From the IMG/VR virus record IMGVR_UViG_2579778842_000003: a stretch of DNA of 64,000 bases. One strand, given 5' to 3'. The notes beneath the pieces are model-generated. The model was not told the origin of the DNA, searched no databases, and saw only the letters and a list, made by a program, of their open reading frames with translations. The number at the start of each line of letters is the position of its first letter. The stretch's first letter is position 1. Shown here one piece after another: positions 2,622 to 64,000 of this stretch. The position numbers and the translations under genes are program-made. Origin of the DNA: a virus (Duplodnaviria; Heunggongvirae; Uroviricota; Caudoviricetes).

Positions 2622-2687
2622 TTAATTAGAATAATTCGCATCGTGTTTGAACGGAATTTAACACTAGTCACTTGTTAAGGATTACCA

Positions 2688-5600
2688 ATGAACAAGCTAT
2701 CTATTGGGGTGTTTCGCTGTTCAAGTGTCAGCGAAATATTGAAATACATTAGGGCAATAACATCTCACCGAGCGCCGATTAAATACGGCGTGGAAAAGGT
2801 GGAAGGCAAAAGCTATGACCGACTGCGCCGGGAGGCGAATCAGAAGGCGATAGATTTGCTTAATTCACTGGTGGACAGCGCGACACTGACAGATGAACAG
2901 CGCCAGATCCTGGCTGGGTACACCGGTGAAGGCGGCATTGGCGGGTCCGTCTCCGAATATTACACACCAAAGCCGATCGCTGAAGGTGTCTGGGAGATCA
3001 TGAAGCTCTACGGCGCGGACGTAGGTAACACTCTGGAACCATCGGCGGGCACCGGCGTTTTTAATGAGACAAAACCGGTTGGTACGGTGATGACTGCGAC
3101 TGAGATCAGCAGTGTTTCCGGTCGTATAAACCAGTTGTTACACCCGGAAGACAGCGTACAGATTTCCCCGTTCGAACAGCTGGCTATAAGCACACCTAAC
3201 GATTCATTCGACCATGTTGTGGGTAACGTTCCGTTCGGCGGTCGTGATAACACACGCAACATCGATAAGCCTTACGCAGAAGAAACGGACATGGGTTCTT
3301 ACTTCATGCTCCGCATGCTGGACAAGATAAAGCCAGGCGGATTCATGTGCGTGATTGTGCCGCCGTCCATTGTTTCAGGTTCAAACATGAAGCGGTTACG
3401 CCTGCGCCTATCACGGAAAGCAGAATTTCTTGGTGCCCACCGCTTGCCTACCGGTACTTTTGACGCAAACGGGACCAGTACGGTCGTAGATGTGGTGCTG
3501 ATGCGCAAACATCCGGCAGAGATGGCTGAGAAAATCCCCCTGGTGGATGAAAGCACTCTTGAATCAGCAAATGTGCTTTGGCCAACGTTTATTTCTGGCA
3601 AGTGGTTTGAAAAGGATGGCCGCCGGTTTGTTCATGGCACCCAAGAAAAGGGCTTCCGGGGGCGTATTGAGGTTCGTGCCGACGGTCAGATTGATAACCA
3701 GGCTCTTAAAGCGAAGCTGATTCATCGTTTCGAAAGCCGTATCGACTGGTCTTTGCTCGATATGGCTGAACCGTCACCGACCGCAGACGTTGTTGGTGAA
3801 GGGGAAATGCGCCTGATTAATGGCGTATGGCAAAAATATGCTGGTGGTCGCTGGATTGAAGCTGATGCCGGGAAGGAACTTAAGATCGATGCTGCCAGTT
3901 ATGGCGCGGATAGCTGGGAGGCTCTTCAGCGTAACCTGACTACAACAGAAGGCCGTCTCGGTATGACATTTACCCAGATGGCAAATGTCCGCGATAAGTA
4001 CACCACATCAATCAGCGACGATATGGTGCAGCTGGTGGACTGGATTAACAGCCAGCCTGAAAAATACCGTGAACGCTTGTATCGCGGGGCGATGATTGGC
4101 CGGATGTTAATTGAATATCAGGATATGAAGGCCGCCGGGCATAGTGCTGAACAAATCGAACAGCAGCGCCTTTCTCTGGTATCCCGTTTGCAGGCAGAGA
4201 TTGACCGTTTTGGTAACCCCGGTCGCGGTCCGATAGCGAAATTATCGGGGAGCGGTGCGCGCGCCTGGTTTGCTTTCCGTGGTGCAATTAAGCTGGATGG
4301 CACTATTTCTGACGAGCTGACAGGAAAACTGGTTACGCATGATTCCAGCGCCAGTTATGACTCCACCAGCTATCAGGACACCCTGCGTTATCTCTACAGT
4401 GATCTCACTCGCGATCCAATCCAGCTCGATGATTTCCGCCTTGCGTTTACCGGCGAACTGCCAGCCAGTGATGATGAGTTGCTTAATTTATTGGCCAGCA
4501 CCCCTGGCATTGCGGTTTCACCGTATGGCGGGATTGTTCCGTTCGCCCGCGCCACCAGCGGCGACATTAACGAGATAGTGGCTCCAAAACAGGAATTCCT
4601 CGCCACGCTCCCCGACGGTCCAGTAAAGAACAACGTCCTTAATCAGCTGGCAGCGATCGAAGAGAAGCGCATCAAGACGCCAGCAGAGAATATCCGCTTT
4701 AAGCTCAATAGCCGTTGGTTCGACCGTTCCGTCATTCTGGAGTTTTTGCAGGAAAACGGCTATCCGGATCTGCGCTATGTGCAGTCAGTGCAGCTGGAAG
4801 GCGACGAAATGGTTTCTGACACCTATCACGGTGGTGATGGCCTGTTCGTCGGGCACCGATACGGTGTCGTCCAGCGCAAGGATAAAGAAACAGGCGAGAT
4901 CCGCTACGAGTGGGACCGTAAATCAGGAGAAAACGCGACCGGGTTCCCGGCACAGCTGGAAAAGTATCTCAATGGTGCGCGTATCGGTGGCAAAGATAGC
5001 GCGACGGCGAACGGCTATCGTGAGCAGATGGCACTGCTTGAGGACCAGTTCAATAAGTGGATCAAGACGCACGATCGCTACGATGAGCTGGTTGCCAAAT
5101 ACAACGATGTGTTCAATAGCAATATCCCGTATGAACACTCTGGCGATCCGCTTGGGTTGAAGGGATTAAGCGGTAAGCGCCAGCCATTTGATTACCAGAA
5201 TAGCGAGGTGCGCCGACTGTCCGAAGATGGGCGCGGCATCCTGGGCTTCGGTACCGGGCTGGGTAAAACCACGACCGCGCTGGCGCTTGAGACGTTCAAC
5301 TATGAGAACGGTCGCTCCACCCGTACTGCTTATGTAGTGCCTAAATCAGTGCTGGAAAACTGGTATTACGAAGCAAAAGAATTCCTGAGTGAAGAGGCAT
5401 TCAGTAACTACCTGTTCGTCGGTCTTGATGTGCTGATGGATGGCGATCAGATTCGCCAGGTGCCGGTGCTCGATGAGAACGGTAAACCTGTTCTTGGTAC
5501 TGATGGCACTCCAGTTATGCGCGATGCTCTTAAGCTGGCAGATGAAGCCACTATCACAGCGCGGATGAACGCGATCCCGCACTCAAACTACCGTGCAGTC

Positions 5601-8600
5601 GTGTTTACCAAAGAACAATACGCCCGCATTCCGCTACGTGATGACACCGTAGATGAGCATGCACAAGACATGCTTTATGACTTCGTTGCCGCCGGGCGCG
5701 TAGCCAGCGCAATGGATTCCGACTCCCATCGTAAAGAGGCGGCGCGTCGCTGGGTATTGTCGGAGTATTCAGATACCGGTACCGAAAAAGCAGAGAAGTA
5801 TCCGTACTTTGAGGATATGGGCTTCGATAGTGTGATCGCCGACGAAGGTCACAACTACCGCAATAGCTATAAAAATGGTCGCGAAGCGTCACAACTGGCC
5901 TATCTGCCCACCAGCGCGGTGGCGCAATCGGCGCGGGATATGGCAATCAAAAACGCGTACCTGATGAAAAAGAATGGCGGGCGCGGGCCGGTTCTCCTGA
6001 CTGCAACGCCAGTCGTTAACACCCCGATCGATGCATACAACATGCTTTCTCATGTTCTGCCGAAGGAATACTGGCAGAAGATGGGGATCTACGGTCCTGA
6101 TGACTTCGTTAAATTCTTCGGCAAGACCAGGCTGGAAACGGTACAGAAAATCAGCGGTGAAGTTGAAGAAAAAATGGCGCTGGTGGGCTTTGAAAACCTT
6201 GATGCGCTGCGCGGTATATTCCATCGCTGGGTAACGCTTAAAACGGCGGAAGACGTTAAGGATACCGTGGAGATCCCGGAACTGGACGAACACCAGCAGG
6301 ATGCACCACTTACTGAAGAACAACTGGCGGCGTATGAAGAATTGCGTCAGCAGGCGGAAGCGGCGGCCAAAGCCAACAATGGTGTAACGACCTCGGTCAA
6401 TGAAGACGGCGTGATTGAGCACGAGAAAGCCCGTCCGATCTTCTCAATAATCAGGGATATGGACCGCGTATGTACTGACATGGACCTGTACTATCGCCGG
6501 ATCACCTATCGTTTCCTGCCGGAGTACGCCGATGCGGTGCAGCAGCTGGCGGACAGTTTGCCTAAACAAGCCACCAGCGAAGACGACGACAGTGATGATT
6601 CAATCACGCAGCAATCGCAATACTCCCTGATAGATAAGGGCGAGTTTATTCAGTTGCAGGTTCCGGAAGCGTTCGAGCAGGAAGTGAATAAGCGCCTGGC
6701 CAGGTTTGGCATTGACGAACAGACCGTAACTCACCCCGTTACGCCGAAATACGCGAAGCTGATCGCCACGCTGAAGGAGTTTTTCCCGGAAGGGAAGCAA
6801 ATCATCTTCACCGACGAAAAAACGCAGCACCAGAAGCTCAAGCGCATTATCTGCAATGCTCTTAACCTTGAACCTTCAAAGGTAGGGATCCTGAATGCTC
6901 AGACTGTTGCCGAGGCAGGTAAAACCGGTAAGAAACTGAAAGCGGTTAAACCGCCGAAAGAGTTACCGGATGAACCAACAGATGCACAGATAGCGAAATA
7001 CAACGAGCAAATGGCTCTGTATGACGCCTATATCGCGCAGCAAAATGAAATGTCGTTGGGCGGTCTGGAAAAGATTGCAGCCGACTTCCAGGAGGGCCGG
7101 ACTCCGATCATCATCTGCAACAAAAAGGCAGAGGTGGGTATCAACCTGCATCGAGGAACGACTGACATCCATCATCTGACGTTGCCATGGACACCAGCCA
7201 GTATCGCACAGCGTAACGGTCGCGGTGCTCGAGTTGGCTCCAACCGTGCAAGCGTTCGCGTTCACTACTACTGCGGCAAGGGGTCTTTCGATGAATACCG
7301 ATTGAAGACGCTGAAGCGTAAAGCAGGCTGGATCTCCGATATCCTCCGTTCAGATAAGTCGGAAATGGAGAACGCCGACGCCAATGACATGATCGAAATG
7401 CAGATGTATACCGCGAAGGATGACGGCGAACGTCTGGCAATGATGCAGGTTCAAATGGATAAGGCGAAAGCTGCGAAACGCGCTCGCCAGAAAGAACAGG
7501 CTACTATCGACCTTCAGAATTACATCAAGGCGCAGCACGCAGCTGGCGAGGATGTGGAGGTACTTACCGCTGAATTAGAGCGAAGCAAAGCGGAACTTGA
7601 AAAGACCACCGCCGAGGTAGCTAAATTCAAACAGGCGGTAATGGCCAAAGCAGCTGATAACGCAGACTGGAAAGCCCGCTGGGGTAGCGTCCATCACACA
7701 GACCGTACGTTGTTAGCACAGTATCGCGCGTCGTTGAAAAGCGCCATTCAGCGCAAGGCTAATATCTCTCAGGCCATCTCCCGCTATGAGAAATTATTGA
7801 ACCGTACTCAGAAGGCCGCGACGGATATCAAACGCCTGCGCCCGCTGGTGGAGGATGCAATAAATAAAGGCATTCTGGATGTTGATCCTGATCTGGTTAA
7901 CCATGCGAATGAGTTCCTTGTTATCGGCGATCGCTCATGGCGTGTAGGCCAATACTACGATTGTGCCGGTGATATCGTTCGCATTAAGTCGCTGGACTTC
8001 GACAGCCAGCGCGCAGACGTGGAGATCATCTTTACCTTAAGAGGCACCAAATCGGGTAACTGGGATGTGAAGACGCTGGATAAACAGGTGGATGTAACTC
8101 CCGATGAAGATGCTGTTATGCAGAAAATCAGTGGTGGCGTCTCCATCGCCGGGATTAACGACATCATTTCCTGTGACGATTTCTACCGTTTCCAGCAGCG
8201 CGGCATGATCAAAATCACTGACTCGTACGGCGTTCAGACTACAGAGTCAGGCTATAGCATTGATTTTGTTGGTACCTATACGGACCCACTGAAGCATGCG
8301 GTTTACCCGGATCGCCGTGACGGCGCGCTGAAGTCGTCAATTGCAAAATGGGTGCTTGGTATGATGTCGGAAGGGAATAACCGCCAGATCCGTTCGGCAG
8401 AAACATTCCTGGTTGAATTGTTTGGCTCCAATTATGGCGATGTAATCGCGTCATACGGAGATACGCTATCCCCTGAAGCAATTCAGGAGAAAATAGCGGA
8501 TGCGATCGCCAGAATGCCGGAAAAAACAAGCCAGGGGTCTACTCGTAACGGGGATTCTGAACTTGAAGTCACCAATGCCATTTTCGGTACCAATGAGTTC

Positions 8601-9455
8601 CGGGCGTCAGATTATGAGATCACCACAGCACAGTTTGGCACCATTGGCATTTACAGCAATAAAGACGAGATCAAGCAGGCAATGGACGCAGCAAGTGCGC
8701 GCATTGCAGCAGAACGGAAAGCCAATCTGAATCATGCAGTCGCCGCGCTGACTCAATCGTGGGTAACAGCAATCAGGGAGGCCGCCACCACAGGAAAAAT
8801 CACACCGGCAATTGCGGATGTCGTAAACGACGGCTCTAAATTTATGGATGCCTATAAAATGGATGCGGTGCAGTTGCCATCAGTCTATGGCCAACTCAGC
8901 TATCGCATGACCTACAACCTGGTATCAATGTTTACTGACCTTGCCATCCTTGGGCTGGTGGACCTTAACGAGGTTACGCCGGAATTACTCAGCATGCGCA
9001 AGAATCATGTTGAGATATTGCAGAGAATTAACACGGTTCTTGCCGGGCGCACCGATGAAGAGAAACAGGCCGACGCTGATCGGATAAACCTGGCCCTAGG
9101 CAACATCACGGAGGAAGAAATTGCCGCCAGAAACGAGAAACAAGAAGAGTTATCATCAATACAGGGTGATGCCACCAGCATAGCTCAGTCTCTTGGGCTG
9201 AATTATCGCGTATCCACCGCCGACCTGAAGATGATGTACGCACCAAAATTCGCCGCTGGCGAGGTATTTGGGCTTCAGGAAGCCTCCGGCATGAAAGGGG
9301 TTCTTTTCCGTGCGAAAGACGCAATCAAGGCGAAATTCGGCGCTCGCTGGTTGCCAGCGAAGGCGAAGAACAGCGATTTCCCGGGTAACTGGTGGATTAT
9401 CGAGACAAAACACAACGTGGCGGACGTTCTGGCCGTCATCCAACAATACGCATAA
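2688..9455 (+). CDS. darB: DarB antirestriction protein, methyltransferase-helicase fusion, 2255 aa
   Basis: 2255 aa as recalled for P1 DarB; N-terminal adenine-MTase-like motif VGNVPFGG, Walker A GFGTGLGKT, DExH box DEGHNYRN; followed by ulx-lxc. Confidence 0.85.
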   Translation: MNKLSIGVFRCSSVSEILKYIRAITSHRAPIKYGVEKVEGKSYDRLRREANQKAIDLLNSLVDSATLTDEQRQILAGYTGEGGIGGSVSEYYTPKPIAEGVWEIMKLYGADVGNTLEPSAGTGVFNETKPVGTVMTATEISSVSGRINQLLHPEDSVQISPFEQLAISTPNDSFDHVVGNVPFGGRDNTRNIDKPYAEETDMGSYFMLRMLDKIKPGGFMCVIVPPSIVSGSNMKRLRLRLSRKAEFLGAHRLPTGTFDANGTSTVVDVVLMRKHPAEMAEKIPLVDESTLESANVLWPTFISGKWFEKDGRRFVHGTQEKGFRGRIEVRADGQIDNQALKAKLIHRFESRIDWSLLDMAEPSPTADVVGEGEMRLINGVWQKYAGGRWIEADAGKELKIDAASYGADSWEALQRNLTTTEGRLGMTFTQMANVRDKYTTSISDDMVQLVDWINSQPEKYRERLYRGAMIGRMLIEYQDMKAAGHSAEQIEQQRLSLVSRLQAEIDRFGNPGRGPIAKLSGSGARAWFAFRGAIKLDGTISDELTGKLVTHDSSASYDSTSYQDTLRYLYSDLTRDPIQLDDFRLAFTGELPASDDELLNLLASTPGIAVSPYGGIVPFARATSGDINEIVAPKQEFLATLPDGPVKNNVLNQLAAIEEKRIKTPAENIRFKLNSRWFDRSVILEFLQENGYPDLRYVQSVQLEGDEMVSDTYHGGDGLFVGHRYGVVQRKDKETGEIRYEWDRKSGENATGFPAQLEKYLNGARIGGKDSATANGYREQMALLEDQFNKWIKTHDRYDELVAKYNDVFNSNIPYEHSGDPLGLKGLSGKRQPFDYQNSEVRRLSEDGRGILGFGTGLGKTTTALALETFNYENGRSTRTAYVVPKSVLENWYYEAKEFLSEEAFSNYLFVGLDVLMDGDQIRQVPVLDENGKPVLGTDGTPVMRDALKLADEATITARMNAIPHSNYRAVVFTKEQYARIPLRDDTVDEHAQDMLYDFVAAGRVASAMDSDSHRKEAARRWVLSEYSDTGTEKAEKYPYFEDMGFDSVIADEGHNYRNSYKNGREASQLAYLPTSAVAQSARDMAIKNAYLMKKNGGRGPVLLTATPVVNTPIDAYNMLSHVLPKEYWQKMGIYGPDDFVKFFGKTRLETVQKISGEVEEKMALVGFENLDALRGIFHRWVTLKTAEDVKDTVEIPELDEHQQDAPLTEEQLAAYEELRQQAEAAAKANNGVTTSVNEDGVIEHEKARPIFSIIRDMDRVCTDMDLYYRRITYRFLPEYADAVQQLADSLPKQATSEDDDSDDSITQQSQYSLIDKGEFIQLQVPEAFEQEVNKRLARFGIDEQTVTHPVTPKYAKLIATLKEFFPEGKQIIFTDEKTQHQKLKRIICNALNLEPSKVGILNAQTVAEAGKTGKKLKAVKPPKELPDEPTDAQIAKYNEQMALYDAYIAQQNEMSLGGLEKIAADFQEGRTPIIICNKKAEVGINLHRGTTDIHHLTLPWTPASIAQRNGRGARVGSNRASVRVHYYCGKGSFDEYRLKTLKRKAGWISDILRSDKSEMENADANDMIEMQMYTAKDDGERLAMMQVQMDKAKAAKRARQKEQATIDLQNYIKAQHAAGEDVEVLTAELERSKAELEKTTAEVAKFKQAVMAKAADNADWKARWGSVHHTDRTLLAQYRASLKSAIQRKANISQAISRYEKLLNRTQKAATDIKRLRPLVEDAINKGILDVDPDLVNHANEFLVIGDRSWRVGQYYDCAGDIVRIKSLDFDSQRADVEIIFTLRGTKSGNWDVKTLDKQVDVTPDEDAVMQKISGGVSIAGINDIISCDDFYRFQQRGMIKITDSYGVQTTESGYSIDFVGTYTDPLKHAVYPDRRDGALKSSIAKWVLGMMSEGNNRQIRSAETFLVELFGSNYGDVIASYGDTLSPEAIQEKIADAIARMPEKTSQGSTRNGDSELEVTNAIFGTNEFRASDYEITTAQFGTIGIYSNKDEIKQAMDAASARIAAERKANLNHAVAALTQSWVTAIREAATTGKITPAIADVVNDGSKFMDAYKMDAVQLPSVYGQLSYRMTYNLVSMFTDLAILGLVDLNEVTPELLSMRKNHVEILQRINTVLAGRTDEEKQADADRINLALGNITEEEIAARNEKQEELSSIQGDATSIAQSLGLNYRVSTADLKMMYAPKFAAGEVFGLQEASGMKGVLFRAKDAIKAKFGARWLPAKAKNSDFPGNWWIIETKHNVADVLAVIQQYA

Positions 9456-9488
9456 CAGGAGCGCCCGGTTCGCCGGGCGTCGCATAAT

Positions 9489-9929
9489 ATGGCCACATTA
9501 TCTGATACAATAAAACCGAATAAAACATATCTTGAGGCGGTGCTGCGTACGGCGTTGTTAGGAAAGACAGAAGACGAATACGTTGATTTCTTCCTGTCAG
9601 GGCTACGCGGGCGATTACTGAAAAATCCCCGCCTGTACCGCAGTTATGGCCCATACTGGCCGGAAATTAAAAAATTATTACTGGAGCGCGGTTATGGTAA
9701 TTTCGGTCGTCTCGTTGACCGTGACGTTCGCAAAATTTACCGTTATGACCGCCCGGCGCTGACACTCATAGCCGCGACGCTCTACAGCCAGGAGCGTTTT
9801 GATAATGGTCAGATATACTCAGCCTGGCATTTACTGCCAGTGCCTGAAGAAGTTGACGACCAGGACTATGAGTTTGAGTCTTACGATTTGGAAGTTGAAG
9901 CCTTGGCACAGGCTGGAGAGAAAACTTGA
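9489..9929 (+). CDS. ulx: Ulx-like protein, 146 aa
   Basis: ORF between darB and lxc, stop overlaps lxc start; synteny only. Confidence 0.45.
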   Translation: MATLSDTIKPNKTYLEAVLRTALLGKTEDEYVDFFLSGLRGRLLKNPRLYRSYGPYWPEIKKLLLERGYGNFGRLVDRDVRKIYRYDRPALTLIAATLYSQERFDNGQIYSAWHLLPVPEEVDDQDYEFESYDLEVEALAQAGEKT

Positions 9930-10174
9930 AAAAGCGATACTACACAGTAAAGCATGGGACGCTACGAGCATTACAAGAGTTTGCTGACAAGCATAACGTT
10001 GAGGTGCGCAGGGAAGGGGGAAGTAAAGCTCTGCGTATGTACCGTCCGGATGGGAAATGGCGTACGGTCGTCGATTTCAAAACTAACAGCGTTCCCCAGG
10101 GCGTCCGTGACCGGGCATTCGAAGAATGGGAGCAGATCATCATAGATAACGCATTGCTCCTGAATGCTGATTAA
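9926..10174 (+). CDS. lxc: Lxc/Bof C1 co-repressor, 82 aa
   Basis: 82-aa ORF at the expected position, length as recalled for P1 Bof; followed by strong terminator. Confidence 0.6.
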   Translation: MKKRYYTVKHGTLRALQEFADKHNVEVRREGGSKALRMYRPDGKWRTVVDFKTNSVPQGVRDRAFEEWEQIIIDNALLLNAD

Positions 10175-10210
10175 TTTATCGGGCAGTTTTATCTGCCCGA
10201 TAAATTTTTA
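10175..10210. terminator. Bidirectional intrinsic terminator between lxc and the convergent SIR2-like gene
   Basis: Perfect 12-bp inverted repeat TTTATCGGGCAG / CTGCCCGATAAA with 6-nt loop, followed by TTTTTA. Confidence 0.6.
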
Positions 10211-10220
10211 TCGACCACAA

Positions 10221-11528
10221 TTACACTATATTCTTAACTATAAGGTTGGCGTCCTTCAAGGTGCCTAATGTTTCAATGTGGTTTTTTATCATTAATCTAT
10301 TTGAGGCAATTATTGCAGGCCATCGTGTTTCCCAAGCTCTGTAAGCATACCAAGAAACTCCCCAATTCCTTTCTTTACTCATATGACCCATCGAGTATTC
10401 AACTGCGTCTAAATATGTTTTTTCATACTTAGTATTGCTAACCTCTATGATGCTTCCAAAATATATAAGCCATTTTGCCAACTGTTCATATTGCTCCCAC
10501 GCTCCGTTATTCCTTGTTAACTTTCTCTTTTTTTCTATTATCCTTTCGAAAAGAGAAACGACTTTATCATCATTCCAATCTAAACCTTCCGATATAATTG
10601 ATGATATAATTTGATAAAATGAATCCTCTAATTTAAGATATTCATTTTTATAAGTATAAGCCCCCGAAACAACTTTTCTGATATTTTCGCGCGCTCTTTC
10701 AATGATGTCTTTAATGAGAGACATCTTATAACTTAATCGACTAAAGAAACAATCTATTTCTGTATTGTCAATTACCCTTATACCAAAGCAATAGAAGTAA
10801 TAATCCTTCATATCTTGACTTACTTTGTTGCGAGATATCAAAAAGATATTAGAGCACAGGGCATTATTTTTCGAAAATTTTTTATAGTCATTTATAATTG
10901 CTTTAAGATTTGTGTCGCTTAAAGAATACCCTAATATCGCAACTGTATTTTCATGCAGCATCGTACTAAGTTTTCGTGAAAAATAAGTATCGGAATTTAT
11001 AAATCTGAAGTAATCATCTGAAGTGACAATCATATTTTTTGGCGAATCAATAGAGCCATGAACATGATATATTTTCACCTTGGATGGATACTTTGGAATT
11101 GGCAGGCCGGGCGTGATAGACTGTACACTTTCATCTCCAACCAAGCATTCAGCCAACTTGTCATAATTTGTTGTAATGACACGGAATGAGTTTTTTTGGA
11201 AAAAATCTTTTATATTTGATATGTCTTCTCCAAGTTGAATTGGAGATATGATGTCAACAATTTCATCATAAATCGACTTACCCTCAATATTGAGCTTCAA
11301 AGATAGTATTTGTGCGGCTTCTTCAAGACTCAGTGCTGGTGGTTTATCATCAGGGAATAACGTGTCTTCCAACTTTTTGGCATTGTGAACTTTGCTGCAA
11401 ACTTTTTTTAATAGTTCCTTCCACGTTGGAGCTTCACCGTTCGAGACTGCCTTTGAAAAGCCAGTCCCGGTAAATAGACAAAGCCTGCTTGTAGCGGCAG
11501 CGTATGCTAACTCAACATATTCGCTCAT
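10221..11528 (-). CDS. SIR2-family (SIR2_2/ThsA-type) NAD-binding domain protein with uncharacterised C-terminal region, 435 aa
   Basis: Motifs in order: LFTGTGFS (GAGxS-like), PTWKELL, ITTNYDKLAE, YHVHGS (catalytic HG), ILGYSLSD; visibly AT-rich versus flanks; GGAG SD 8 nt before ATG. Confidence 0.7.
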   Translation of the reverse strand: MSEYVELAYAAATSRLCLFTGTGFSKAVSNGEAPTWKELLKKVCSKVHNAKKLEDTLFPDDKPPALSLEEAAQILSLKLNIEGKSIYDEIVDIISPIQLGEDISNIKDFFQKNSFRVITTNYDKLAECLVGDESVQSITPGLPIPKYPSKVKIYHVHGSIDSPKNMIVTSDDYFRFINSDTYFSRKLSTMLHENTVAILGYSLSDTNLKAIINDYKKFSKNNALCSNIFLISRNKVSQDMKDYYFYCFGIRVIDNTEIDCFFSRLSYKMSLIKDIIERARENIRKVVSGAYTYKNEYLKLEDSFYQIISSIISEGLDWNDDKVVSLFERIIEKKRKLTRNNGAWEQYEQLAKWLIYFGSIIEVSNTKYEKTYLDAVEYSMGHMSKERNWGVSWYAYRAWETRWPAIIASNRLMIKNHIETLGTLKDANLIVKNIV

Positions 11529-11584
11529 TACTTACTCCATTTACTTATAGTTCTATGGAGAAGTATACCCTAATGCATTGACGT

Positions 11585-12253
11585 TTATAGATAATTTCCT
11601 TTTCCAGTTAACTCCCCTTTAGGCACCCGTTTTTGTGCCAGTGTTTGGGTTCCGCGAATTATGTTAATCAGAGGGCTTAGTAACGATGATTCCTGGCGGG
11701 CATCAACTTCTCCTGCCATTGCCCTAATGTAGTCGGCGCTTGCAACGTTGTTATATTCCGTTGCGAAGCAGCATAACAACGTCAGAACGTGCTCTGTCGT
11801 TATTTCGCTCCAGTTGATGTTGAAAAATTCATCGCCTTTTTTGTCATGTTCGGAATCGAAGATGCTTTGGTGAAGGATGTATTTGCCGGATTCCTTGCGC
11901 GGTAACTTGATCGCTTTCTGGCGTTCCAATTCCTTGTAAATCTGCATCGCTTCAATCAGTACCGGTCTGCCGTTCATGAAGGGATCACGCAACCTTACAC
12001 GCTGGCCAACTCGACCGGTAATAAAGCTGTTTTCCTCTTCCACCAGCACGATAAAACCCTTTTCCTCTTTTTCTCGCAATTCGCGCAGCAGCTGGAGTTC
12101 CATATCGCGGCGGCGTTCAGGGTAGCTGGTCCGCTCAGCCATTATCAGCTCATTGTTGATCCATGCGGCAGTCATTGACGCCGGTTTGCCGACGCTCATC
12201 GAAACAACGCATATTTTCTTATCCATAGCGCCCCTACAAAAAAGAAAAGCCAC
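11585..12253 (-). CDS. Mat-like protein (position of P1 mat), 222 aa; true start may be internal Met
   Basis: ORF between ref and the cargo slot; synteny only. Confidence 0.35.
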   Translation of the reverse strand: MAFLFCRGAMDKKICVVSMSVGKPASMTAAWINNELIMAERTSYPERRRDMELQLLRELREKEEKGFIVLVEEENSFITGRVGQRVRLRDPFMNGRPVLIEAMQIYKELERQKAIKLPRKESGKYILHQSIFDSEHDKKGDEFFNINWSEITTEHVLTLLCCFATEYNNVASADYIRAMAGEVDARQESSLLSPLINIIRGTQTLAQKRVPKGELTGKGNYL

Positions 12254-12414
12254 CAGCGGCGGCTTAGCAATACAACTGAAGGTAGCGCCCGGTACTCAGA
12301 CTGTGCCGTCCATGGAATATTTGAAAAGGGATCCATCCGTACCGGGCGTGTGATGATTCTGACTGAAGTCACTTGTCAGTTGTCAATCATTTATCATTAA
12401 AAATAATATATTTA

Positions 12415-12975
12415 TTAGTGCATAATGTTTGTCATCTCATAGGCGTCAGCCAGTAACTCCATCTCTGACTTGTTCAGCAGGGTGAATTCTTTCTTGCCTC
12501 CAACCACACCATCGGCATGAACAGGGACCAGCCAGGGGTATTTTGCTCTTACTTCAGTCGGTGCTGCATGCTGGTGGTGCCATCTACAAAGTGGCAATTG
12601 CTTTTTATGACAACCCGGCGCAGTACGACCGGCGATATGGTGCAGAGACACCTCATTAGATATTACTCCATGCATATAGCAGGCAATGCAGGGGAGAGTG
12701 CCAAGAGCATTGGCGATGCGCCGTTCCTCCGCCGTTGGTGTTCTCCCCTTCAAGCCACGAGATTTTATTTTTACCGCGCTTTTCCGCGTTTTGCTGGCTG
12801 GTGGGCGCTCTTTCTGTTTAGCGATACGGCGGTCGATAGTATCCCGCATTTTCTGATATTGAGATTCTCGCCAGACCGGATCAGCCAACTTCTCCCGTTG
12901 CCGAGCGATCGCTCGTTCTCTGGCTGCCTTCTGCCACTTGCGGCACTGTTCAATTTTTTGTTCGATTGTTTTCAT
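12415..12975 (-). CDS. ref: Ref recombination enhancement function, HNH-type endonuclease, 186 aa
   Basis: 186 aa as recalled for P1 Ref; Cys/His-rich HNH-like segment CIACYMHG...HHIAG...CRWHHQH; downstream of cre. Confidence 0.75.
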   Translation of the reverse strand: MKTIEQKIEQCRKWQKAARERAIARQREKLADPVWRESQYQKMRDTIDRRIAKQKERPPASKTRKSAVKIKSRGLKGRTPTAEERRIANALGTLPCIACYMHGVISNEVSLHHIAGRTAPGCHKKQLPLCRWHHQHAAPTEVRAKYPWLVPVHADGVVGGKKEFTLLNKSEMELLADAYEMTNIMH

Positions 12976-12981
12976 ATGGTC

Positions 12982-13006
12982 AAAAAAAGGCGGCCTAATG
13001 GCCGCC
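12982..13006 (-). terminator. Terminator-like hairpin plus T7 run ending 6 nt upstream of the ref start codon
   Basis: Minus strand reads GGCGGCC-ATTA-GGCCGCC then TTTTTTT then GACC-ATG. Confidence 0.45.
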
Positions 13007-13221
13007 TATGATGTCAAGGAGTGAAGTAATGGCAACGTCTTCGTAGTTGACAAAAACTGCGACTCAATTATAGCAACCAATTAGAGCAATTAAAGTTGTT
13101 TATTTATCGCGAATCACATTTTTTCACTTCAGTACCTGTGTGCTATACTCCTTCTTGATTGATTGGATGCGGAATACAAACCCGCTCTTTTGTGCAGCCT
13201 GACTCCTTGCCAGGCTTTTTT

Positions 13222-13533
13222 TTATTTCATCATGGAAGCTGTTAACGCTTTGGACCTTGCTGAACTGATTGAGAGGGCTTTGTCAACGTGCCCCAAAAAT
13301 TCGCCAAACTCAGACATCACTTTAGCAAAACCGCGCCGTGCTTCTTCCTCGGTGGCATTCATCACGAAATGTTCAGCACCACGCATACTTTTGACAGGGA
13401 ACGCAACGGATATTGAATCAATATCAGGCATTCTATCGCTCAGCTTTACAGTGACAATGACGGCTGGCGACTGAATATTAGTGCTTACAGACAGCACTAC
13501 ATATTTTCCGTCGATGTTGAAATCCTTTCTCAT
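13222..13533 (-). CDS. Hypothetical protein downstream of cre (cra position), 103 aa
   Basis: ORF on cre strand between cre and ref; synteny only. Confidence 0.3.
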   Translation of the reverse strand: MRKDFNIDGKYVVLSVSTNIQSPAVIVTVKLSDRMPDIDSISVAFPVKSMRGAEHFVMNATEEEARRGFAKVMSEFGEFLGHVDKALSISSARSKALTASMMK

Positions 13534-13583
13534 ATGTCACCATAAATATCAAAGAATTAGAGCAATCATTTACGCGTTAATGG

Positions 13584-14615
13584 CTAATCGCCATCTTCCA
13601 GCAGGCGCACCATTGCCCCTGTTTCACTATCCAGGTTACGGATATAGTTCATGACAATATTTACGTTGGTCCAGCCACCAGCTTGCATGATCTCCGGTAT
13701 TGAAACTCCGGCACGGGCCATATCTCGCGCGGCTCCGACACGGGCACTGTGTCCAGACCAGGCCAGGTACCTCTGGCCAGAGTCATCCTTAGCCCCGTAA
13801 ATCAATCGGTGAGTTGCTTCAAAAATCCCTTCCAGGGCGCGAGTTGATAGCTGGCTGGTGGGTGATGGCGAGGCAACACCATTTTTTCTGACCCGGCAAA
13901 ACAAGTAGTTATTCGGATCATCAGCCACACCAGAGACAGAAATCCATCGCTCGACCAGTTTAGTTACCCCCAGGCTAAGTGCCTTCTCTACACCCGCGGT
14001 ACTAACCAGCGTTTTCGTTCTGCCAATATGGATTAACATTCTCCCACCGTCTGTACGTGAGATATCTTTAACCCTGATCCTGGCAATTTCGGCTATACGT
14101 AACAGGGTGTTATAAGCGATCCCCAGAAATGCCAGATTACGTATGTCCTGGCAGCGATCGCTATTTTCCATGAGTGAACGAACCTGGTCGAAATCAGTGC
14201 GTTCGAACGCCAATGCCTGTTTTGCACGTTCACCGGCATCAACGTTTTCTTTTCGAATCCGCCGCATGACCAGTGAAACAGCATTGCTGTCACTTGGTCG
14301 TGGCAGCCCGGACCGACGATGAAGCATGTTTAGCTGGCCCAAATGTTGCTGGATAGTTTTTACTGCCAGACCGCGCGCCTGAAGATATAGAAGATAATCG
14401 CGAACATCTTCAGGTTTTGCGGGAAACCATTTCCGGTTATTCAACTTGCACCATGCCGCCCATGACCGGCAAACGGACAGAAGCATTTTCCAGGTATGCT
14501 CAGAAAACGCCTGGCGATCCCTGAACATGTCCATCAGGTTCTTGCGAACCTCATCACTCGTTGCATCGACCGGCAATGCAGGCAAATTTTGGTGTACGGT
14601 CAGTAAATTGGACAT
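13584..14615 (-). CDS. cre: Cre tyrosine site-specific recombinase, 343 aa
   Basis: Protein begins MSNLLTVHQNLPALPVDATSDEVRKNLMDMFRDRQAFSEHTWKMLLSVCRSWAAWCKLNNRKWFPA and ends MVRLLEDGD, recognised as Cre; loxP lies about 420 bp upstream. Confidence 0.97.
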   Translation of the reverse strand: MSNLLTVHQNLPALPVDATSDEVRKNLMDMFRDRQAFSEHTWKMLLSVCRSWAAWCKLNNRKWFPAKPEDVRDYLLYLQARGLAVKTIQQHLGQLNMLHRRSGLPRPSDSNAVSLVMRRIRKENVDAGERAKQALAFERTDFDQVRSLMENSDRCQDIRNLAFLGIAYNTLLRIAEIARIRVKDISRTDGGRMLIHIGRTKTLVSTAGVEKALSLGVTKLVERWISVSGVADDPNNYLFCRVRKNGVASPSPTSQLSTRALEGIFEATHRLIYGAKDDSGQRYLAWSGHSARVGAARDMARAGVSIPEIMQAGGWTNVNIVMNYIRNLDSETGAMVRLLEDGD

Positions 14616-14622
14616 TTGACAC

Positions 14623-14844
14623 TCAGATAATGGTTTTAAGTAAAGTGTACAGGATCGGCTCTGCCTTTACCTGTTTATGGTTCTCGTCATAGAAACGCCA
14701 GCGACCGCGCGTGCGTTCTATTTTCTCTTCACCGCGCGATAATGACAGTTGACAACTATCACGATCAAACCCTTTTGCCCGCCAGTAACCACGGTTTTTC
14801 TCAAGCTCAATATGAGTGGACACTTTAGCAGCTGAATATCCCAT
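14623..14844 (-). CDS. Hypothetical small basic protein between loxP and cre, 73 aa
   Basis: ORF with SD GAGGTG 6 nt before ATG, preceded by CCAATCAATCA motif. Confidence 0.3.
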   Translation of the reverse strand: MGYSAAKVSTHIELEKNRGYWRAKGFDRDSCQLSLSRGEEKIERTRGRWRFYDENHKQVKAEPILYTLLKTII

Positions 14845-14941
14845 TTTTCACCTCTGATTGATTGGTGGTGCTAAGTGCGCTACGCGAAATCTAGAGCACA
14901 AACACTGCCAACATTTCGCAGATTTTACGTAGCGCAACCTT

Positions 14942-14961
14942 GATCAAATGATCAAGTGATC
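14942..14961. promoter_or_regulatory. Cluster of three GATC Dam sites within 20 bp in the region upstream of cre
   Basis: TGATCAAATGATCAAGTGATCAC; Dam control of cre promoters is described for P1. Confidence 0.4.
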
Positions 14962-15033
14962 ACTATTTGACCTGATAAGGTATTGAACTGTATGGATTTA
15001 CAGGTAAATTGATCATGTTCAATAACCCCTAAT

Positions 15034-15067
15034 ATAACTTCGTATAATGTATGCTATACGAAGTTAT
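15034..15067. other. loxP: loxP recombination site
   Basis: Exact ATAACTTCGTATA-ATGTATGC-TATACGAAGTTAT. Confidence 0.97.
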
Positions 15068-15110
15068 TAGGTCTGAAGAGGAGTTTACGTCCAGCTGCGC
15101 ATAAAAATCA

Positions 15111-15127
15111 ATAATTATTAGAGCAAT
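15111..15127 (-). promoter_or_regulatory. C1 operator-like site
   Basis: Minus strand ATTGCTCTAATAATTAT, 14 of 17 to recalled consensus ATTGCTCTAATAAATTT. Confidence 0.5.
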
Positions 15128-15193
15128 AAATTTTGAGAGAAAAATCCCACTCCACCAGCCAAAAACTGGATTGTTTTTCATAGTTGTTTGACA

Positions 15194-15210
15194 ATTGCTC
15201 TAATAAATTA
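15194..15210 (+). promoter_or_regulatory. C1 operator overlapping a TTGACA -35 element (coi-c1 promoter region)
   Basis: ATTGCTCTAATAAATTA, 16 of 17; TTGACA immediately upstream at 15189-15194. Confidence 0.7.
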
Positions 15211-15448
15211 TAGTTTTGCCGCCGTTTCGTAATACGACTTTGGATTCACTATTTAATGTGTCTTCAGCGTTGTAGAGCGGCTCAGAAGGAAATGAGCAAA
15301 CAGGGAAACCTTATACAACGGCATTACAGCTATGCATTGCTCATCTTACACACAGCGCAATGTTGTTAGATTACCCCAGCATGGATCATGGGTGAAACAG
15401 TAGGTCAGAGCTTCAGGCTCTGTGTTGTCAATACAGTGAGGCATAATT

Positions 15449-15658
15449 ATGGCTTTCATTCCACCAACCATCGACGACGTTAGACATTGCTCTAACGCTT
15501 TATCTGTAGACCCCGCCGAAACCGACGCTGCCCGCGCCATTGCTGAACACTACTCAAAGATATCCAATCAGGAGTACCGCATCACCCAAGACGACCTGGA
15601 TGATCTCACTGACACAATCGAATATCTCATGACCACTAACCAGCCAGACTCACAATAA
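15449..15658 (+). CDS. coi: Coi, C1 inactivator, 69 aa
   Basis: 69-aa ORF directly upstream of c1, length as recalled for P1 Coi. Confidence 0.7.
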   Translation: MAFIPPTIDDVRHCSNALSVDPAETDAARAIAEHYSKISNQEYRITQDDLDDLTDTIEYLMTTNQPDSQ

Positions 15659-15674
15659 ATGCACTAATAAATCT
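15658..15674 (+). promoter_or_regulatory. C1 operator-like site between coi and c1
   Basis: AATGCACTAATAAATCT, 14 of 17. Confidence 0.4.
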
Positions 15675-15768
15675 ATTATTTTCGTTGGATCCTTCTATAA
15701 TGGTGGCCAACAACTCCCAGCGTAATCCGCTGTGAGTTGTTGGCCATGTCAATTCTGGAGGAGGATCA

Positions 15769-16620
15769 ATGATAAATTATGTCTACGGCGAACAACTGTA
15801 CCAGGAGTTCGTCAGTTTCAGGGATCTCTTTCTAAAAAAAGCTGTTGCACGCGCCCAACACGTTGATGCCGCCAGCGACGGTCGTCCTGTTCGCCCGGTT
15901 GTCGTTCTGCCGTTCAAAGAAACGGACAGCATTCAAGCTGAAATTGATAAATGGACTTTAATGGCGCGGGAACTGGAACAGTACCCAGACCTCAATATCC
16001 CAAAGACTATTTTATATCCAGTGCCTAACATCCTTCGCGGTGTGCGTAAGGTTACAACTTATCAGACAGAAGCTGTGAACAGCGTCAACATGACCGCTGG
16101 CCGCATTATTCATCTGATTGATAAGGACATTCGCATCCAGAAAAGCGCGGGGATCAATGAGCACAGTGCGAAATACATAGAGAACCTGGAAGCAACAAAA
16201 GAGCTAATGAAGCAGTACCCGGAGGATGAAAAATTCCGTATGCGTGTACACGGCTTTAGCGAAACAATGCTGCGCGTCCATTACATTTCCAGTAGCCCTA
16301 ACTACAATGATGGTAAATCAGTTAGTTACCATGTGCCGCTGTGTGGTGTGTTTATCTGCGATGAAACTCTCCGTGATGGAATCATCATCAACGGTGAATT
16401 CGAGAAAGCAAAATTTAGCCTTTATGACTCTATAGAACCGATCATCTGCGACCGCTGGCCGCAGGCAAAAATATATCGCCTGGCAGATATTGAAAATGTA
16501 AAAAAACAAATTGCCATCACTCGCGAAGAGAAAAAGGTCAAATCAGCCGCATCAGTTACGCGCAGCCGTAAAACTAAGAAGGGGCAGCCAGTAAACGACA
16601 ACCCCGAAAGCGCGCAATAG
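15769..16620 (+). CDS. c1: C1 repressor of lytic functions, 283 aa
   Basis: 283 aa starting MINYVYGEQLYQEFVSFRDLFLKK, recognised as P1 C1; adjacent to coi and loxP. Confidence 0.9.
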   Translation: MINYVYGEQLYQEFVSFRDLFLKKAVARAQHVDAASDGRPVRPVVVLPFKETDSIQAEIDKWTLMARELEQYPDLNIPKTILYPVPNILRGVRKVTTYQTEAVNSVNMTAGRIIHLIDKDIRIQKSAGINEHSAKYIENLEATKELMKQYPEDEKFRMRVHGFSETMLRVHYISSSPNYNDGKSVSYHVPLCGVFICDETLRDGIIINGEFEKAKFSLYDSIEPIICDRWPQAKIYRLADIENVKKQIAITREEKKVKSAASVTRSRKTKKGQPVNDNPESAQ

Positions 16621-22304: not shown

Positions 22305-22714
22305 TATACATTAAAGAGACACCTTTGGTGCAAACGCGTTACGTACATCAACCACCGCTGATGATTTTGTGCTCTTTGCTACTATTCATCACCAACGGAT
22401 CAGCGTAACCTCGTTGCCAATCAGTTAATAAGGAGATGCCGCAGCGACCGGATCATCAACAAGAAATTGTTGCTGAATTTTCCTCAAGGGATGAGATGAA
22501 TCTCTTCTCATTAAAGCAGGAAGAAAGGGATCGCGTCGAAGTGTCTCCAACTCTCGACCACAACCGGATGAACCTGGCCCAACTCGCCTAGTACAGCAAA
22601 GAATTAGAGATGTCTATTGCCCGACTTGAAAACGAAAAAGCCGCTATCCAAGTCCAGCACGAAGTAGTTCTGAACCGGATTAGAGAAATGCAAAACGATA
22701 ACAGGGGATTTTGA

Positions 22715-23071
22715 ATGGCTAAAGTCGAGTACCATCGCGATCGCGGTAATTACCTGGAAATATACGATCATGAATCTCTTAACGATATCAACGATGCGTT
22801 ATATGAATACTGTGAAAAAACGAGCATCACAGATGCACCTGATGCATTTGTCGAGCTGCCGGTATATCTCCGCGACATCTATGCAATACGAACACCGCCC
22901 GTATCGGTGATTCACATTGGCTATGTCCGCCTGTCCATCGAAGAAGATGAAGATCGTTATATCGTGCGCCACTATACATTGGACAGAAAAGAACTTCCTA
23001 ATGAATGGAACATGAGTAATTTCTACAACGGTGAATATGGCTTAAAATCCGCTAATAATTTACGGTCATAA
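22715..23071 (+). CDS. Hypothetical protein, 118 aa
   Basis: ORF on the opposite strand to humD, ATG overlaps stop of a small upstream ORF. Confidence 0.4.
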   Translation: MAKVEYHRDRGNYLEIYDHESLNDINDALYEYCEKTSITDAPDAFVELPVYLRDIYAIRTPPVSVIHIGYVRLSIEEDEDRYIVRHYTLDRKELPNEWNMSNFYNGEYGLKSANNLRS

Positions 23072-23933
23072 TCTATACAGGCATGTATAACAACAACGAG
23101 CCTATTAGCTGTCAACAACATTATTTTCTCAAATAAGAAAAAGCAGAAAACAAATTGTTTAAGATCACAAATTGTGGCCTTGATGGAGGAGGGAGGCTTA
23201 TTGGCTATGGCTAAAAATCAAATTAGACACTTCATGTTGCTGTAGCTCATCAAGATCCGAGGCCACAAAACCTTTTCCGAAAAACTTCACAAGTAACTCA
23301 CTAGCTGCATCATTGTCACCTATTACACGAAAGTCATACGGCAACGTCGCAAGTTGACGATGTAATCCTGCTGAGAAAGTCGAATCTAACAGCGCCCAGA
23401 ATTCCCACCGCAGGATAATACTCGCCTCTTAATACTGTATATATGTTGTTACGATATGTTTTTCTGTCTCTAAAAAAAGATGTTAATAGAATGCTAACCA
23501 TTGAAGGGGATAAAAATATACAATTCCAACAAACGTTATTTTTAACAATTTTTTTCTTTGCGTTGACTTTCCCTGACACCTTGTCTGACCGAAGGTGCGC
23601 GAAAGCCACTTTTTCCTTCCTGAGTTATCCACAAAGTTATGCACTTGCAAGAGGGCCATTTTCTACATATTGTGGTGGCTAACAGATGAAATGAATGTAG
23701 ATTAATTGAAGATAAGGAGAAAATTTGAGATGCAATCATGACGTTAATAGATAGGGTCTGCATTACAGACCCCACCCGCATCAAGGAATTAGCCGTTCCC
23801 TGATGTTTTTCCGAAAACATGTGCCGTAAGCTCACGTTAACGACTTTCATTCACCGAATCCAACTATATAGGGGTTGGGTTTCTACGTCAACGTGAGCAA
23901 GTGCACCTTTACATTTGACAAGGAACCACCTGA

Positions 23934-44153: not shown

Positions 44154-44433
44154 TCCACCCAGGCGTGCTGAATGTCAGATATAATCGGCATACTCAAATC
44201 ACTCCTAACGATATGAGTCATCACCAGAAAATCAGGATTAATGCGCCGGACTCTTCCCGGCTGTCACACCGAATCGCCAGGATGGTGAATCCCTTTACCC
44301 GAGAAACAACAAACGGTGGCTTGCACATTCCGGCTACCTGGTTCGTTGCCTGAGCTAGGGGCAAGGTTCCCCCCTTTTAACGTCACCAGACCGCTAACGA
44401 CGCATGTGCCAGACGCCGTGTTACAACCAAATA

Positions 44434-61607: not shown

Positions 61608-62117
61608 ATGGGGCACAATAACACTAAGGGAAACCGTAAATTTATTAAGGGCCGCTATACTGCCAACGCGGCCAAAGGCGAACGACTGGTATCTTCTGAA
61701 TTCCAGCTCACTTTTGCAGGCCATGAAGATATCAGCGTACTGGTTCGCACGTCGCAAATTCCTGAAATGACCCGCGAGGATGTGGAGGACTATGGTCCGA
61801 ATGGTGTGAAGTTCAACCAGCACGGTCCAATTCGAAACTCTGGGGAAATCCAGGTCCAGTGCGTGGAGACTATCGAAGGCGATATTCTTCAGTTCATTAA
61901 AGATCGCATTGCGGCGAAGGACTATGTTGATATCACGATGGCTGCTACCCCTGAATCCAAATCTTCCGGGGTTAACGCTGTGACAAAAGCTGCTACAACA
62001 ATTGAAATGTTGGACTGCAAAATCTACAGTGATGCAATCGACTTTAGTACCGAAGATGTGACTGCCGCTGTGCGCCCGTCACTTCGTATCGTCTACAACT
62101 GGATTGAGTGGGATTAA
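61608..62117 (+). CDS. Structural-module protein, 169 aa
   Basis: Last gene of operon, followed by terminator. Confidence 0.4.
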   Translation: MGHNNTKGNRKFIKGRYTANAAKGERLVSSEFQLTFAGHEDISVLVRTSQIPEMTREDVEDYGPNGVKFNQHGPIRNSGEIQVQCVETIEGDILQFIKDRIAAKDYVDITMAATPESKSSGVNAVTKAATTIEMLDCKIYSDAIDFSTEDVTAAVRPSLRIVYNWIEWD

Positions 62118-62148
62118 GTGTTATCCCTTGTACTTTTAATCTTCTTCG

Positions 62149-62166
62149 GGGGAGGTTTACCTCCCC
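62149..62166 (+). terminator. Terminator hairpin at the end of the structural operon
   Basis: GGGGAGGT-TT-ACCTCCCC then TTGA. Confidence 0.5.
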
Positions 62167-62414
62167 TTGATACAACCGCATTCCACCGCCTAGCGAATAG
62201 AGTAAAATAACATCTTGTAAATACTCTGGTATGAAGTGAGTGTAAACTAACAGTTACCTATTAATAAATACTCCTATACTTTTCTACCTTAAATATTTAG
62301 TATGCACATGGTTAAATTTATGTAGCGTCAAAGTTTGTGAAGGCAAGATGTCCGTTAATCTTTGTCGAAGCATATATGGTTCTAGGAAGTATTGGCTTAT
62401 TTAAGAGGAATGTC

Positions 62415-63407
62415 ATGTTACGTATCAATGATATGAGCAATATTATTGTAGGTATTTACAGCAAAAAAAATGAAGAAAAATCATTTGAGTATATGTACTC
62501 TTATCTGACAAGGAAAACAGCTTATTTAACACGTGAGTTTATTCGTGATGGTAATCAGGATAAAGAATTATTAAAAAATACCTATATAGAAGCATTGTCT
62601 TGGCTTTTTGCAATCTGTGATAAACTTGAAATACAACCACAGGAAGCATTTTATAAAAAATTTCCTAGTTGCTGTCCTTATTGCTTAGGGGCGCCTTGTT
62701 CCTGTTCTCAAACACACAGAAAGCCAGAGAAAATAAGAAGCGCAAAAGGAATTAAAGATGAGCTTTTCAATAAATATAACGCTATTAAACCTATGCAATT
62801 TCCGCCTTATGCGCCACGAATGATTAATGACATCTATCCGTCGAATAGAACCATTTGGTCTACTTTTGGTGGGTTTTATCATTCATCCAGGTTATTCGAA
62901 GAGTTGGGTGAGTTGCAAGAGGCTTATGCTAAATCAATTGAAGATAAAAATTACAACAAAGAAAATCTTCATGAAGAGTGTGCTGATATATATGCTTGGT
63001 TGTTTTCTTTATGGGGGATTATTTTTAAAGATGATGATCTTGGCGAGGCGTTTGAAAGTTATTATCTAAATGGTTGTCCTGTCTGCAATAAAAGAGAATG
63101 TGTTTGTGTCAGTTATTCAGGGAAGATTAGTAAAACTGATGAGAAAAGAGCATCATTGGAAAAACTTAAACAAGAGTTAGAACTTCTCTTGAAGGATGAG
63201 ACGACAGGTGAGTTTAAGGAGAATTTAGAGTCTGCTATATCTGCAATTAAAGATGCGATAGACTCAGGAAAAGATGCAGATAGCAGAAGAACTTTATCGG
63301 AAGTCGAAAGTGTTCTTGACTCAATCGAAAAAAATTCAGCCAAGATGTCTAGTGTGGCAAGTAACGCCCTTAATGTTTTTAATGTAATCAGTAAGTTATT
63401 CCAATAA
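62415..63407 (+). CDS. AT-rich cargo protein with MazG-like NTP-pyrophosphohydrolase motifs and two Cys clusters, about 330 aa
   Basis: FEELGELQEAY and HEECADIYAWLFSL resemble the paired MazG/HisE helices; CCPYCLGAPCSC and CPVCNKRECVC; AAGAGGA SD before ATG at 62415; strongly AT-rich. Confidence 0.5.
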   Translation: MLRINDMSNIIVGIYSKKNEEKSFEYMYSYLTRKTAYLTREFIRDGNQDKELLKNTYIEALSWLFAICDKLEIQPQEAFYKKFPSCCPYCLGAPCSCSQTHRKPEKIRSAKGIKDELFNKYNAIKPMQFPPYAPRMINDIYPSNRTIWSTFGGFYHSSRLFEELGELQEAYAKSIEDKNYNKENLHEECADIYAWLFSLWGIIFKDDDLGEAFESYYLNGCPVCNKRECVCVSYSGKISKTDEKRASLEKLKQELELLLKDETTGEFKENLESAISAIKDAIDSGKDADSRRTLSEVESVLDSIEKNSAKMSSVASNALNVFNVISKLFQ

Positions 63408-63749
63408 TGGTGCCCACCGGTTTGTTAGAAAATGAACCGGTGTTGTATTATTTATTATTAAATTAATTTTAATCCTAATAGATGGATGTTTGTTGTGGAT
63501 ATAATTTGTTTAAGTTTTAGGTGTATTTTTCCATATATAATCTAGGTGGTATTAGCAAAGCAAGTATGGAATTTTGTTAACAGCTAGATATTTCTGAAAG
63601 TCATCATGTCGCGAAGGCTATTGGGAGATATGGTCTGAATCTTTGCATGATGTGAAATAACTCCTTCTACTTCATTGTGTTTTACACTATTGGGGAGAAA
63701 AGGGTGCATTGAGGTTACCAGACACACGAAGAGTGGCGGGGATCACTCC

Positions 63750-64000
63750 CATAAGCGCTAACTTAAGGGTTGTGGTATTACGCCTGATATGATTTAACGT
63801 GCCGATGAATTACTCTCACGATAACTGGTCAGCAATTCTGGCCCATATTGGTAAGCCCGAAGAACTGGATACTTCGGCACGTAATGCCGGGGCTCTAACC
63901 CGCCGCCGCGAAATTCGTGATGCTGCAACTCTGCTACGTCTGGGGCTGGCTTACGGCCCCGGGGGGATGTCATTACGTGAAGTCACTGCATGGGCTCAGC
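63750..64000 (+). mobile_element. IS186 (IS4 family), left end, truncated by window edge
   Basis: Terminal repeat CATAAGCGCTAACTTAAGGGTTG at 63750; flanking G/C-rich target GGCGGGGATCACTCCC. Confidence 0.75.
63805..64000 (+). CDS. IS186 transposase, N-terminal part only
   Basis: Own translation MNYSHDNWSAILAHIGKPEELDTSARNAGALTRRREIRDAATLLRLGLAYGPGGMSLREVTAWAQ, recognised as IS186 transposase N-terminus. Confidence 0.75.
   Translation, partial: MNYSHDNWSAILAHIGKPEELDTSARNAGALTRRREIRDAATLLRLGLAYGPGGMSLREVTAWAQ

Follow-up and report, generated by a model that had tools for sequence, protein, structure and literature searches.

The IS186 copy found at the right end of the analysed stretch of a P1-like phage-plasmid (64,000 nucleotides in all, hereafter the window) arrived by simple insertion into a GGGG-N6-CCCC hairpin placed directly after a hok gene. 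The event separated the hok ORF from the tail of its mRNA and has probably put an end to post-segregational killing by the locus. The window is the reverse complement of NZ_CP091040.1 (64000/64000 bases; positions 49546-97720 plus 1-15825), a 97.7-kb IncY P1-like plasmid of a pig Escherichia coli isolate. This identity made it possible to read the sequence past the right end of IS186, which lies beyond the window. The locus in this record is referred to below as L001, its counterpart in the IS-free relative NZ_CP010146.1 as L002, and that of NZ_KX880944.1 (pMCR-1-P3) as L003.

The preliminary description of the window had placed the left terminal repeat of IS186 at position 63750, and the start of a transposase reading frame that leaves the window at 63805. 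Both assignments are confirmed by the exact match of the repeat and by the identity of window positions 63750-64000 to the two copies of E. coli K-12 MG1655, IS186A and IS186B (251/251), which excludes a chance match. The complete element of NZ_CP091040.1 (1340 bp, positions 48457-49796) is 99.93% identical to K-12 IS186A, with a single indel, and is bounded by two perfect 23-bp repeats, the right one (L001 10068-10090, in the identical record) being the reverse complement of CATAAGCGCTAACTTAAGGGTTG. Its identification as IS186 is thus upheld over the full length. The translated transposase equals K-12 InsL1 across residues 1-361, and sister records annotate it as 'IS4-like element IS421 family transposase'. 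In the source record the element contains a run of eight C residues, C8 (C7 in K-12), located outside the window (L001 ~9882-9889, IS position ~1132-1139); it alters the last ~9 codons of the transposase, giving 376 instead of 370 aa, and could represent either a genuine frameshift or a homopolymer sequencing error. The transposase CDS of NZ_CP091040.1 is missing from the PLSDB gene table.

Reading beyond position 64000, as the preliminary description had proposed, revealed the right end of the element followed by the second copy of a 10-bp target-site duplication, GGATCACTCC. Comparison of the flanks with an IS-free P1-like relative, also proposed there, allowed the uninterrupted locus to be rebuilt from L002, whose flanks are identical to those of the IS-bearing plasmid over 750/750 bp to the left and 410/410 bp to the right of the insertion point. 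Here L002 differs from the IS-bearing plasmid solely by the lack of IS186 and of one copy of the duplicated sequence, which it contains once. The arrival of IS186 was a simple insertion that interrupted no protein-coding gene and removed no sequence. The flanks are therefore contiguous with no gene disrupted, as far as protein-coding genes are concerned, the outcome that had been expected to contradict the original proposal; the 3' tail of the hok mRNA was nevertheless split. The features of the region are collected in Table 1.

Table 1. Features at the right end of the window (window positions; L003 and L007 are relatives devoid of the cargo module)
Feature	Position	Strand	Basis
AT-rich cargo module, 1539 bp, GC 0.28-0.37	62151..63689	+	local BLAST against L003, L007 and P1
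MazG-like CDS	62415-63407	+	as annotated; longest ORF from GTG 62337
Non-coding tail of the cargo module	63408..63689	+	module boundary, composition
Terminator-like hairpin right after the MazG-like stop codon	63415-63442	+	terminator scan
Orphaned 3' tail of hok mRNA, ~60 nt	63690..63749	-	homologous to the stretch downstream of hok in module-less L003 and L007
Predicted fold-back inhibitory (fbi) element, CCUCAAUGCACCC	63702..63714	-	complementary to the hok mRNA 5' end, GGGUGCUUGAGG
Target hairpin GGCGGGG-ATCACT-CCCCGCC, left half	63735..63749	.	empty site read in L002
Target-site duplication, left copy, 10 bp, GGATCACTCC	63740..63749	.	repeated after the right IS end, L001 10091-10100
IS186, left 251 bp	63750..64000	+	251/251 to the K-12 copies; remainder beyond the window
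IS186 left terminal inverted repeat, 23 bp, CATAAGCGCTAACTTAAGGGTTG	63750..63772	+	exact match
IS186 transposase frame, 5' part (IS4-family, IS186/IS421)	63805..64000	+	starts with ATG, MNYSHDNWSAILAH...; runs off the window

IS186 recognizes the motif 5'-GGGG(N6/N7)CCCC-3', which may be used in either orientation (PMC5009759). The empty site, GGGG-ATCACT-CCCC, matches this motif, and the duplication spans its core. The hairpin of which it forms part lies 12 bp past the hok stop codon. When IS186 and one copy of the duplication are removed, the rebuilt plasmid (96.4 kb) contains two consensus sites: the hok hairpin, which is its sole GGGG-N6-CCCC site, and an N7 site at window position 44358. 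The latter (GGGGCAAGGTTCCCC, window 44358-44372) is located between a gene encoding an SPFH-domain protein and a dnaB/ban-like gene. The motif and a 10-bp duplication were present in 6/6 IS186 junctions inspected, i.e. those of the present plasmid, two other P1-like plasmids, K-12 hokC, a Klebsiella plasmid and an F-type plasmid; at hokE, the one junction read shows the GGGG half of the motif. It is the target specificity of IS186 that explains its position; the MazG-like cargo plays no part in this.

Two of these junctions, originating from a Klebsiella IncFIB plasmid (L008, OW969858.1) and from the leading region of an F-type plasmid (L009), share 14-16 bp of flank with the site analysed here. 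They were set aside, as they represent other GGGG-N6-CCCC hairpins with no adjacent annotated hok. In L008 (2501-2516 / 3855-3870) IS186 resides in a hairpin with the core of the hok hairpin, GCGGGGATCACTCCCCGC, and is flanked by the same duplication as in the window; no hok gene is annotated beside it.

The hok ORF lies outside the window, 22 bp beyond the right end of IS186, in convergent orientation, and is transcribed towards the MazG-like gene. Its 51-aa product belongs to the Hok/Gef family (PF01848, 78.7 bits; cut-off 22) and is annotated under the same accession (WP_001313475.1) in both IS-bearing and IS-free records. The hok leader and Sok region match the full Rfam model RF01794 (113.9 bits; gathering score 59) at L002 8913-9087, minus strand. 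The 5' end of the hok mRNA was predicted from this match; a promoter-like site stops 7 bp short of it. Also present is a mok-like ORF of 68 aa with an ATG start (L002 8770-8976, minus strand), which overlaps hok in another frame.

In L002, where hok and its tail are contiguous, the intact 393-nt transcript gives a minimum free energy (MFE) fold of -156 kcal/mol (z = -7.1), in which the GC hairpin is formed directly after the hok stop codon. Nucleotides 1-12 of this transcript pair with nucleotides 373-385 in both the MFE and centroid folds, which corresponds to a predicted tac/fbi pairing; this fold-back is an in-silico prediction made on the L002 relative and lacks covariation support. In the plasmid carrying the window, the hok promoter, leader, Sok region, and mok and hok ORFs lie beyond IS186, and the tail with the predicted fbi element is left on the window side. 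The hok ORF and its 3' tail are thus physically separated, and the tac and fbi partners are placed 1.34 kb further apart. The hok locus (L002 8651-9100) shows 87-90% identity to hokW/hokD-type loci of Stx-converting, Rac and other lambdoid phages, and ~98% identity to the corresponding region of several P1-like phage records, in which the hairpin is uninterrupted.

The likely consequences may be considered in the light of the R1 hok/sok system, for which a model of regulation by tac/fbi fold-back of the hok mRNA has been described (PMC9841398), and of K-12 gef/hokC; the functional steps given below are inferred from these two cases. A full-length IS186 inserted at its sequence-specific target, the hairpin downstream of hok, and duplicated 10 bp. 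The hok transcripts would now extend into IS186 through its right end and be unable to form the 5'-3' fold-back, and with no fold-back in the chimeric transcript the stable inert pool of full-length hok mRNA would be lost. Sok would keep repressing the translation of Hok, and post-segregational killing by the locus would disappear.

Chimeric transcripts of 393, 500 and 930 nt are predicted to fold in agreement with this scheme, their 5' end being engaged in local pairing (nucleotides 20-34). The predicted fold of a 644-nt chimera speaks against it, as the 5' end pairs there with IS sequence at the arbitrary 3' end of the molecule. The best duplex between the hok 5' end and its complement within the IS read-through reaches -17.9 kcal/mol, a value attained by 53% of shuffles of the 1-kb read-through and by 4% within its first 100 nt. 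A substitute fbi element inside IS186 was therefore rejected, being no better than shuffled read-through and ignored by the 393-, 500- and 930-nt MFE folds. The search for an intrinsic terminator of the chimeric hok transcript yielded one weak candidate (L001 9536-9517, minus strand), ~920 nt from the 5' end, which disagrees with the transcript of ~644 nt reported for gef (PMC3562002).

It might be argued that the insertion was neutral for hok/sok, either because the locus was already inactive or because the chimera provides a usable inert mRNA, with IS186 being a mere passenger of a hot spot. The perfect motif does make the position explicable without selection, the read-through contains the above-mentioned weak complement to the hok 5' end, and K-12 gef bearing IS186 is still transcribed and still regulated by the antisense RNA (PMC3562002). 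However, uninterrupted alleles retain an intact Hok ORF, a leader and a strongly predicted fold-back, and the complement provided by the IS is of a strength that shuffled read-through matches in more than half of cases. These features of the uninterrupted alleles argue that the locus was functional before the insertion, and we consider neutrality unlikely. Since K-12 gef with its IS is both transcribed and regulated, inactivation of hok by the severing of its tail should be understood as the loss of killing after plasmid loss, and not as the loss of expression.

The distribution of the insertion was analysed in PLSDB, 444 records of which contain this hok 3' region. The site is uninterrupted in 214 or more of them (one place covering at least 80% of the query). 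The left junction observed in the window occurs in 179 records and the corresponding right junction in 161, and a further arrangement, with IS186 at the same position in the opposite orientation, in 36. The hok hairpin is thus occupied in ~48% of the 444 records, a proportion of database records rather than of insertion events, which clonal spread and recombination inflate. The hairpin loop occurs as two alleles, ATCACT and ATCTCT. In one plasmid of the opposite orientation (L012) the two copies of the target-site duplication are identical, GGATCTCTCC, and agree with the loop allele found in the lineage of this plasmid. This duplication, together with the existence of two orientations, points to at least two independent insertions.

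In L003, the two copies of the duplication differ: the left one (7213-7222) is GGATCTCTCC, i.e. the loop allele of the lineage devoid of the cargo module (as in L007), while the right one (8562-8571) is GGATCACTCC, the allele of the window lineage. Such mismatched copies suggest homologous recombination through IS186 between two occupied plasmids.

Could the disarming of hok have been selected, so that the insertion benefits the phage-plasmid or its host beyond the effect of a hot spot? The occupancy of about half of the records by at least two independent events would fit such a benefit, as would the other consensus site (N7), uninterrupted in 546/555 related PLSDB records, and the hok site itself, which was empty in all P1-like phage records among the matches listed in a search of a phage collection. 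Nevertheless, the counts concern records and not events, N6 sites are far more commonly used than N7 sites in mutation-accumulation data (41 versus 16 of 59; PMC5009759), and the N7 site lies upstream of the dnaB/ban-like gene, where an insertion may just be harmful. We therefore regard a selective benefit as improbable. The more specific proposal, that the post-stop hok hairpin is a recurrent IS186 trap in which insertion is selected in P1-like phage-plasmids by disarming the killing or re-regulating hok, would explain the occupancy of about half of the records, the empty sites in the phage records listed and the rarely hit N7 site, but we find it quite improbable. Record counts do not separate a hot spot from selection.

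On its left side, the split hok tail adjoins a cargo module, which stands in for ~11 bp of the relatives without it and is unaltered by IS186. The region between the MazG-like stop codon (63407) and IS186 (63408-63749, 342 bp) had been presented as an AT-rich non-coding spacer of 340 bp. It is AT-rich (GC 0.285-0.33 across 63400-63699, climbing to 0.44 in the last ~100 bp before IS186) and contains no credible ORF, the sole one being a 47-aa ORF with a GTG start on the minus strand, unannotated in related records. An Rfam search of window positions 62100-64000 detected no RNA family at E ≤ 1. According to local BLAST against the module-less relatives L003 and L007, the module ends at 63689 and the hok tail takes over at 63690, so that the spacer is composed of 282 bp of the cargo-module tail and 60 bp (63690-63749) of the orphaned hok mRNA 3' end. 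To this last extent the earlier reading of the spacer had to be amended.

The name of the MazG-like protein comes from the RefSeq annotation. Its sole family match is PHROG 2245 (NTP pyrophosphohydrolase, E = 3.5e-6), limited to residues 145-196, with weak matches in PDB to 2p06 (E = 0.027) and 1vmg (E = 0.31), and no match in Pfam, NCBIfam or PADLOC. The weakly matching NTP-pyrophosphohydrolase core is flanked by Cys-rich motifs, CCPYCLGAPCSCS and CPVCNKRECVCV, and the C-terminal tail of the protein is charged and helix-like.

The original proposal that IS186 interrupted a downstream cargo gene or deleted a partner of the MazG-like gene is extremely improbable. In its favour are the proximity of the element to an AT-rich accessory module and the existence of L003, in which IS186 lies beside bplB and the module is absent. 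However, IS-free L002 possesses this module too, in identical surroundings, and shows no additional gene after the MazG-like one, and the intact 10-bp duplication indicates that no adjacent deletion took place; disruption of a cargo gene and adjacent deletion are both rejected on these grounds. Moreover, all four combinations of presence and absence of the module and of IS186 exist (L001, L002, L003 and L007), and plasmids lacking the module occur both with and without IS186 (L003, L007, L012), which makes the presence of the module independent of the IS. In the module-less plasmids the hok tail follows right after bplB, with ~11 bp in place of the 1539-bp module.

The event described here is an ordinary IS186 insertion, already annotated in public records, and implies no new mechanism. 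Its recognition is of value for annotation, because what appears to be a non-coding AT-rich spacer is in part the severed tail of a toxin mRNA. By analogy with the R1 and K-12 systems, the hokD-type gene, which more than 200 P1-like plasmids (among them carriers of mcr-1 such as pMCR-1-P3) have annotated as intact, has probably ceased to work as an addiction module. The locus is also a clear example, from a plasmid, of what the K-12 chromosome shows too: the GC hairpin conserved in hok loci falls within the narrow target specificity of IS186.

The junction differs from that of canonical P1, as had been supposed: the GenBank record of P1 contains pmgF-rlfB-rlfA upstream of repL at this place, and no hok. 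The accompanying statement that P1 carries IS1 near res-mod proved incorrect in detail. In the P1 reference record IS1 (22626-23393) has isaA and isaB on its two sides and is adjacent to ssb, ~13 kb from res-mod, and the IS inside mod is IS5 (allele mod749::IS5). A search of the plasmid carrying the window detected no homology to IS1, IS5 or res-mod; its ssb-equivalent locus falls outside the window. The slot of the P1 EcoP1I res-mod genes is occupied by a SIR2-family gene (window 10221-11528, minus strand; record 4298-5605), placed between a mat-like gene and the lxc/darB side, which may represent a swapped defence cargo.

Among known systems, hok/sok of plasmid R1 shares with the present locus an mRNA of ~390 nt, the 5' tac/3' fbi fold-back (here predicted), the GC hairpin after the stop codon, the overlapping mok and the antisense Sok. 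Unlike in R1, the 3' part is here displaced by 1.34 kb of IS sequence. Other hot spots of IS186, in the lon promoter, fimA and menC, resemble the hok site in the motif, the 6-bp core and the use of both orientations at one site (PMC5009759). There, however, the targets are promoter or coding sequences, whereas in the present case the target is a 3'-UTR hairpin encoding an RNA structure.

The closest precedents come from E. coli K-12. At hokE (IS186B; NC_000913.3, 608007-609351) IS186 resides 18 bp beyond the hok stop codon in a GGGG-N6-CC.. hairpin; it differs from the present case in the loop (AGTAAT) and in its orientation to hok, which is opposite and is shared by the 36 P1-like plasmids mentioned above. 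At hokC/gef (IS186A; NC_000913.3, 15387-16731) the same element (99.93% identical) has entered the same hairpin past the hok stop codon, GGCGGGG-ATCACT-CCCCGCC, with the same duplication, GGATCACTCC, and the same convergent orientation. The two cases differ in that hokC is a chromosomal locus, while the present one resides in a P1-like phage-plasmid, and the loci are just 74.8% identical over 412 bp, the present one being closest to the hokD/hokW type of lambdoid and Rac prophages (87-90% identity). The accepted view of the insertion next to gef/hokC, as given in PMC3562002, is that it destroys the fbi element and upsets normal processing of the mRNA. The severing of a hok mRNA from its regulatory tail by IS186 is therefore a pattern known from the K-12 chromosome, now repeated on a phage-plasmid.
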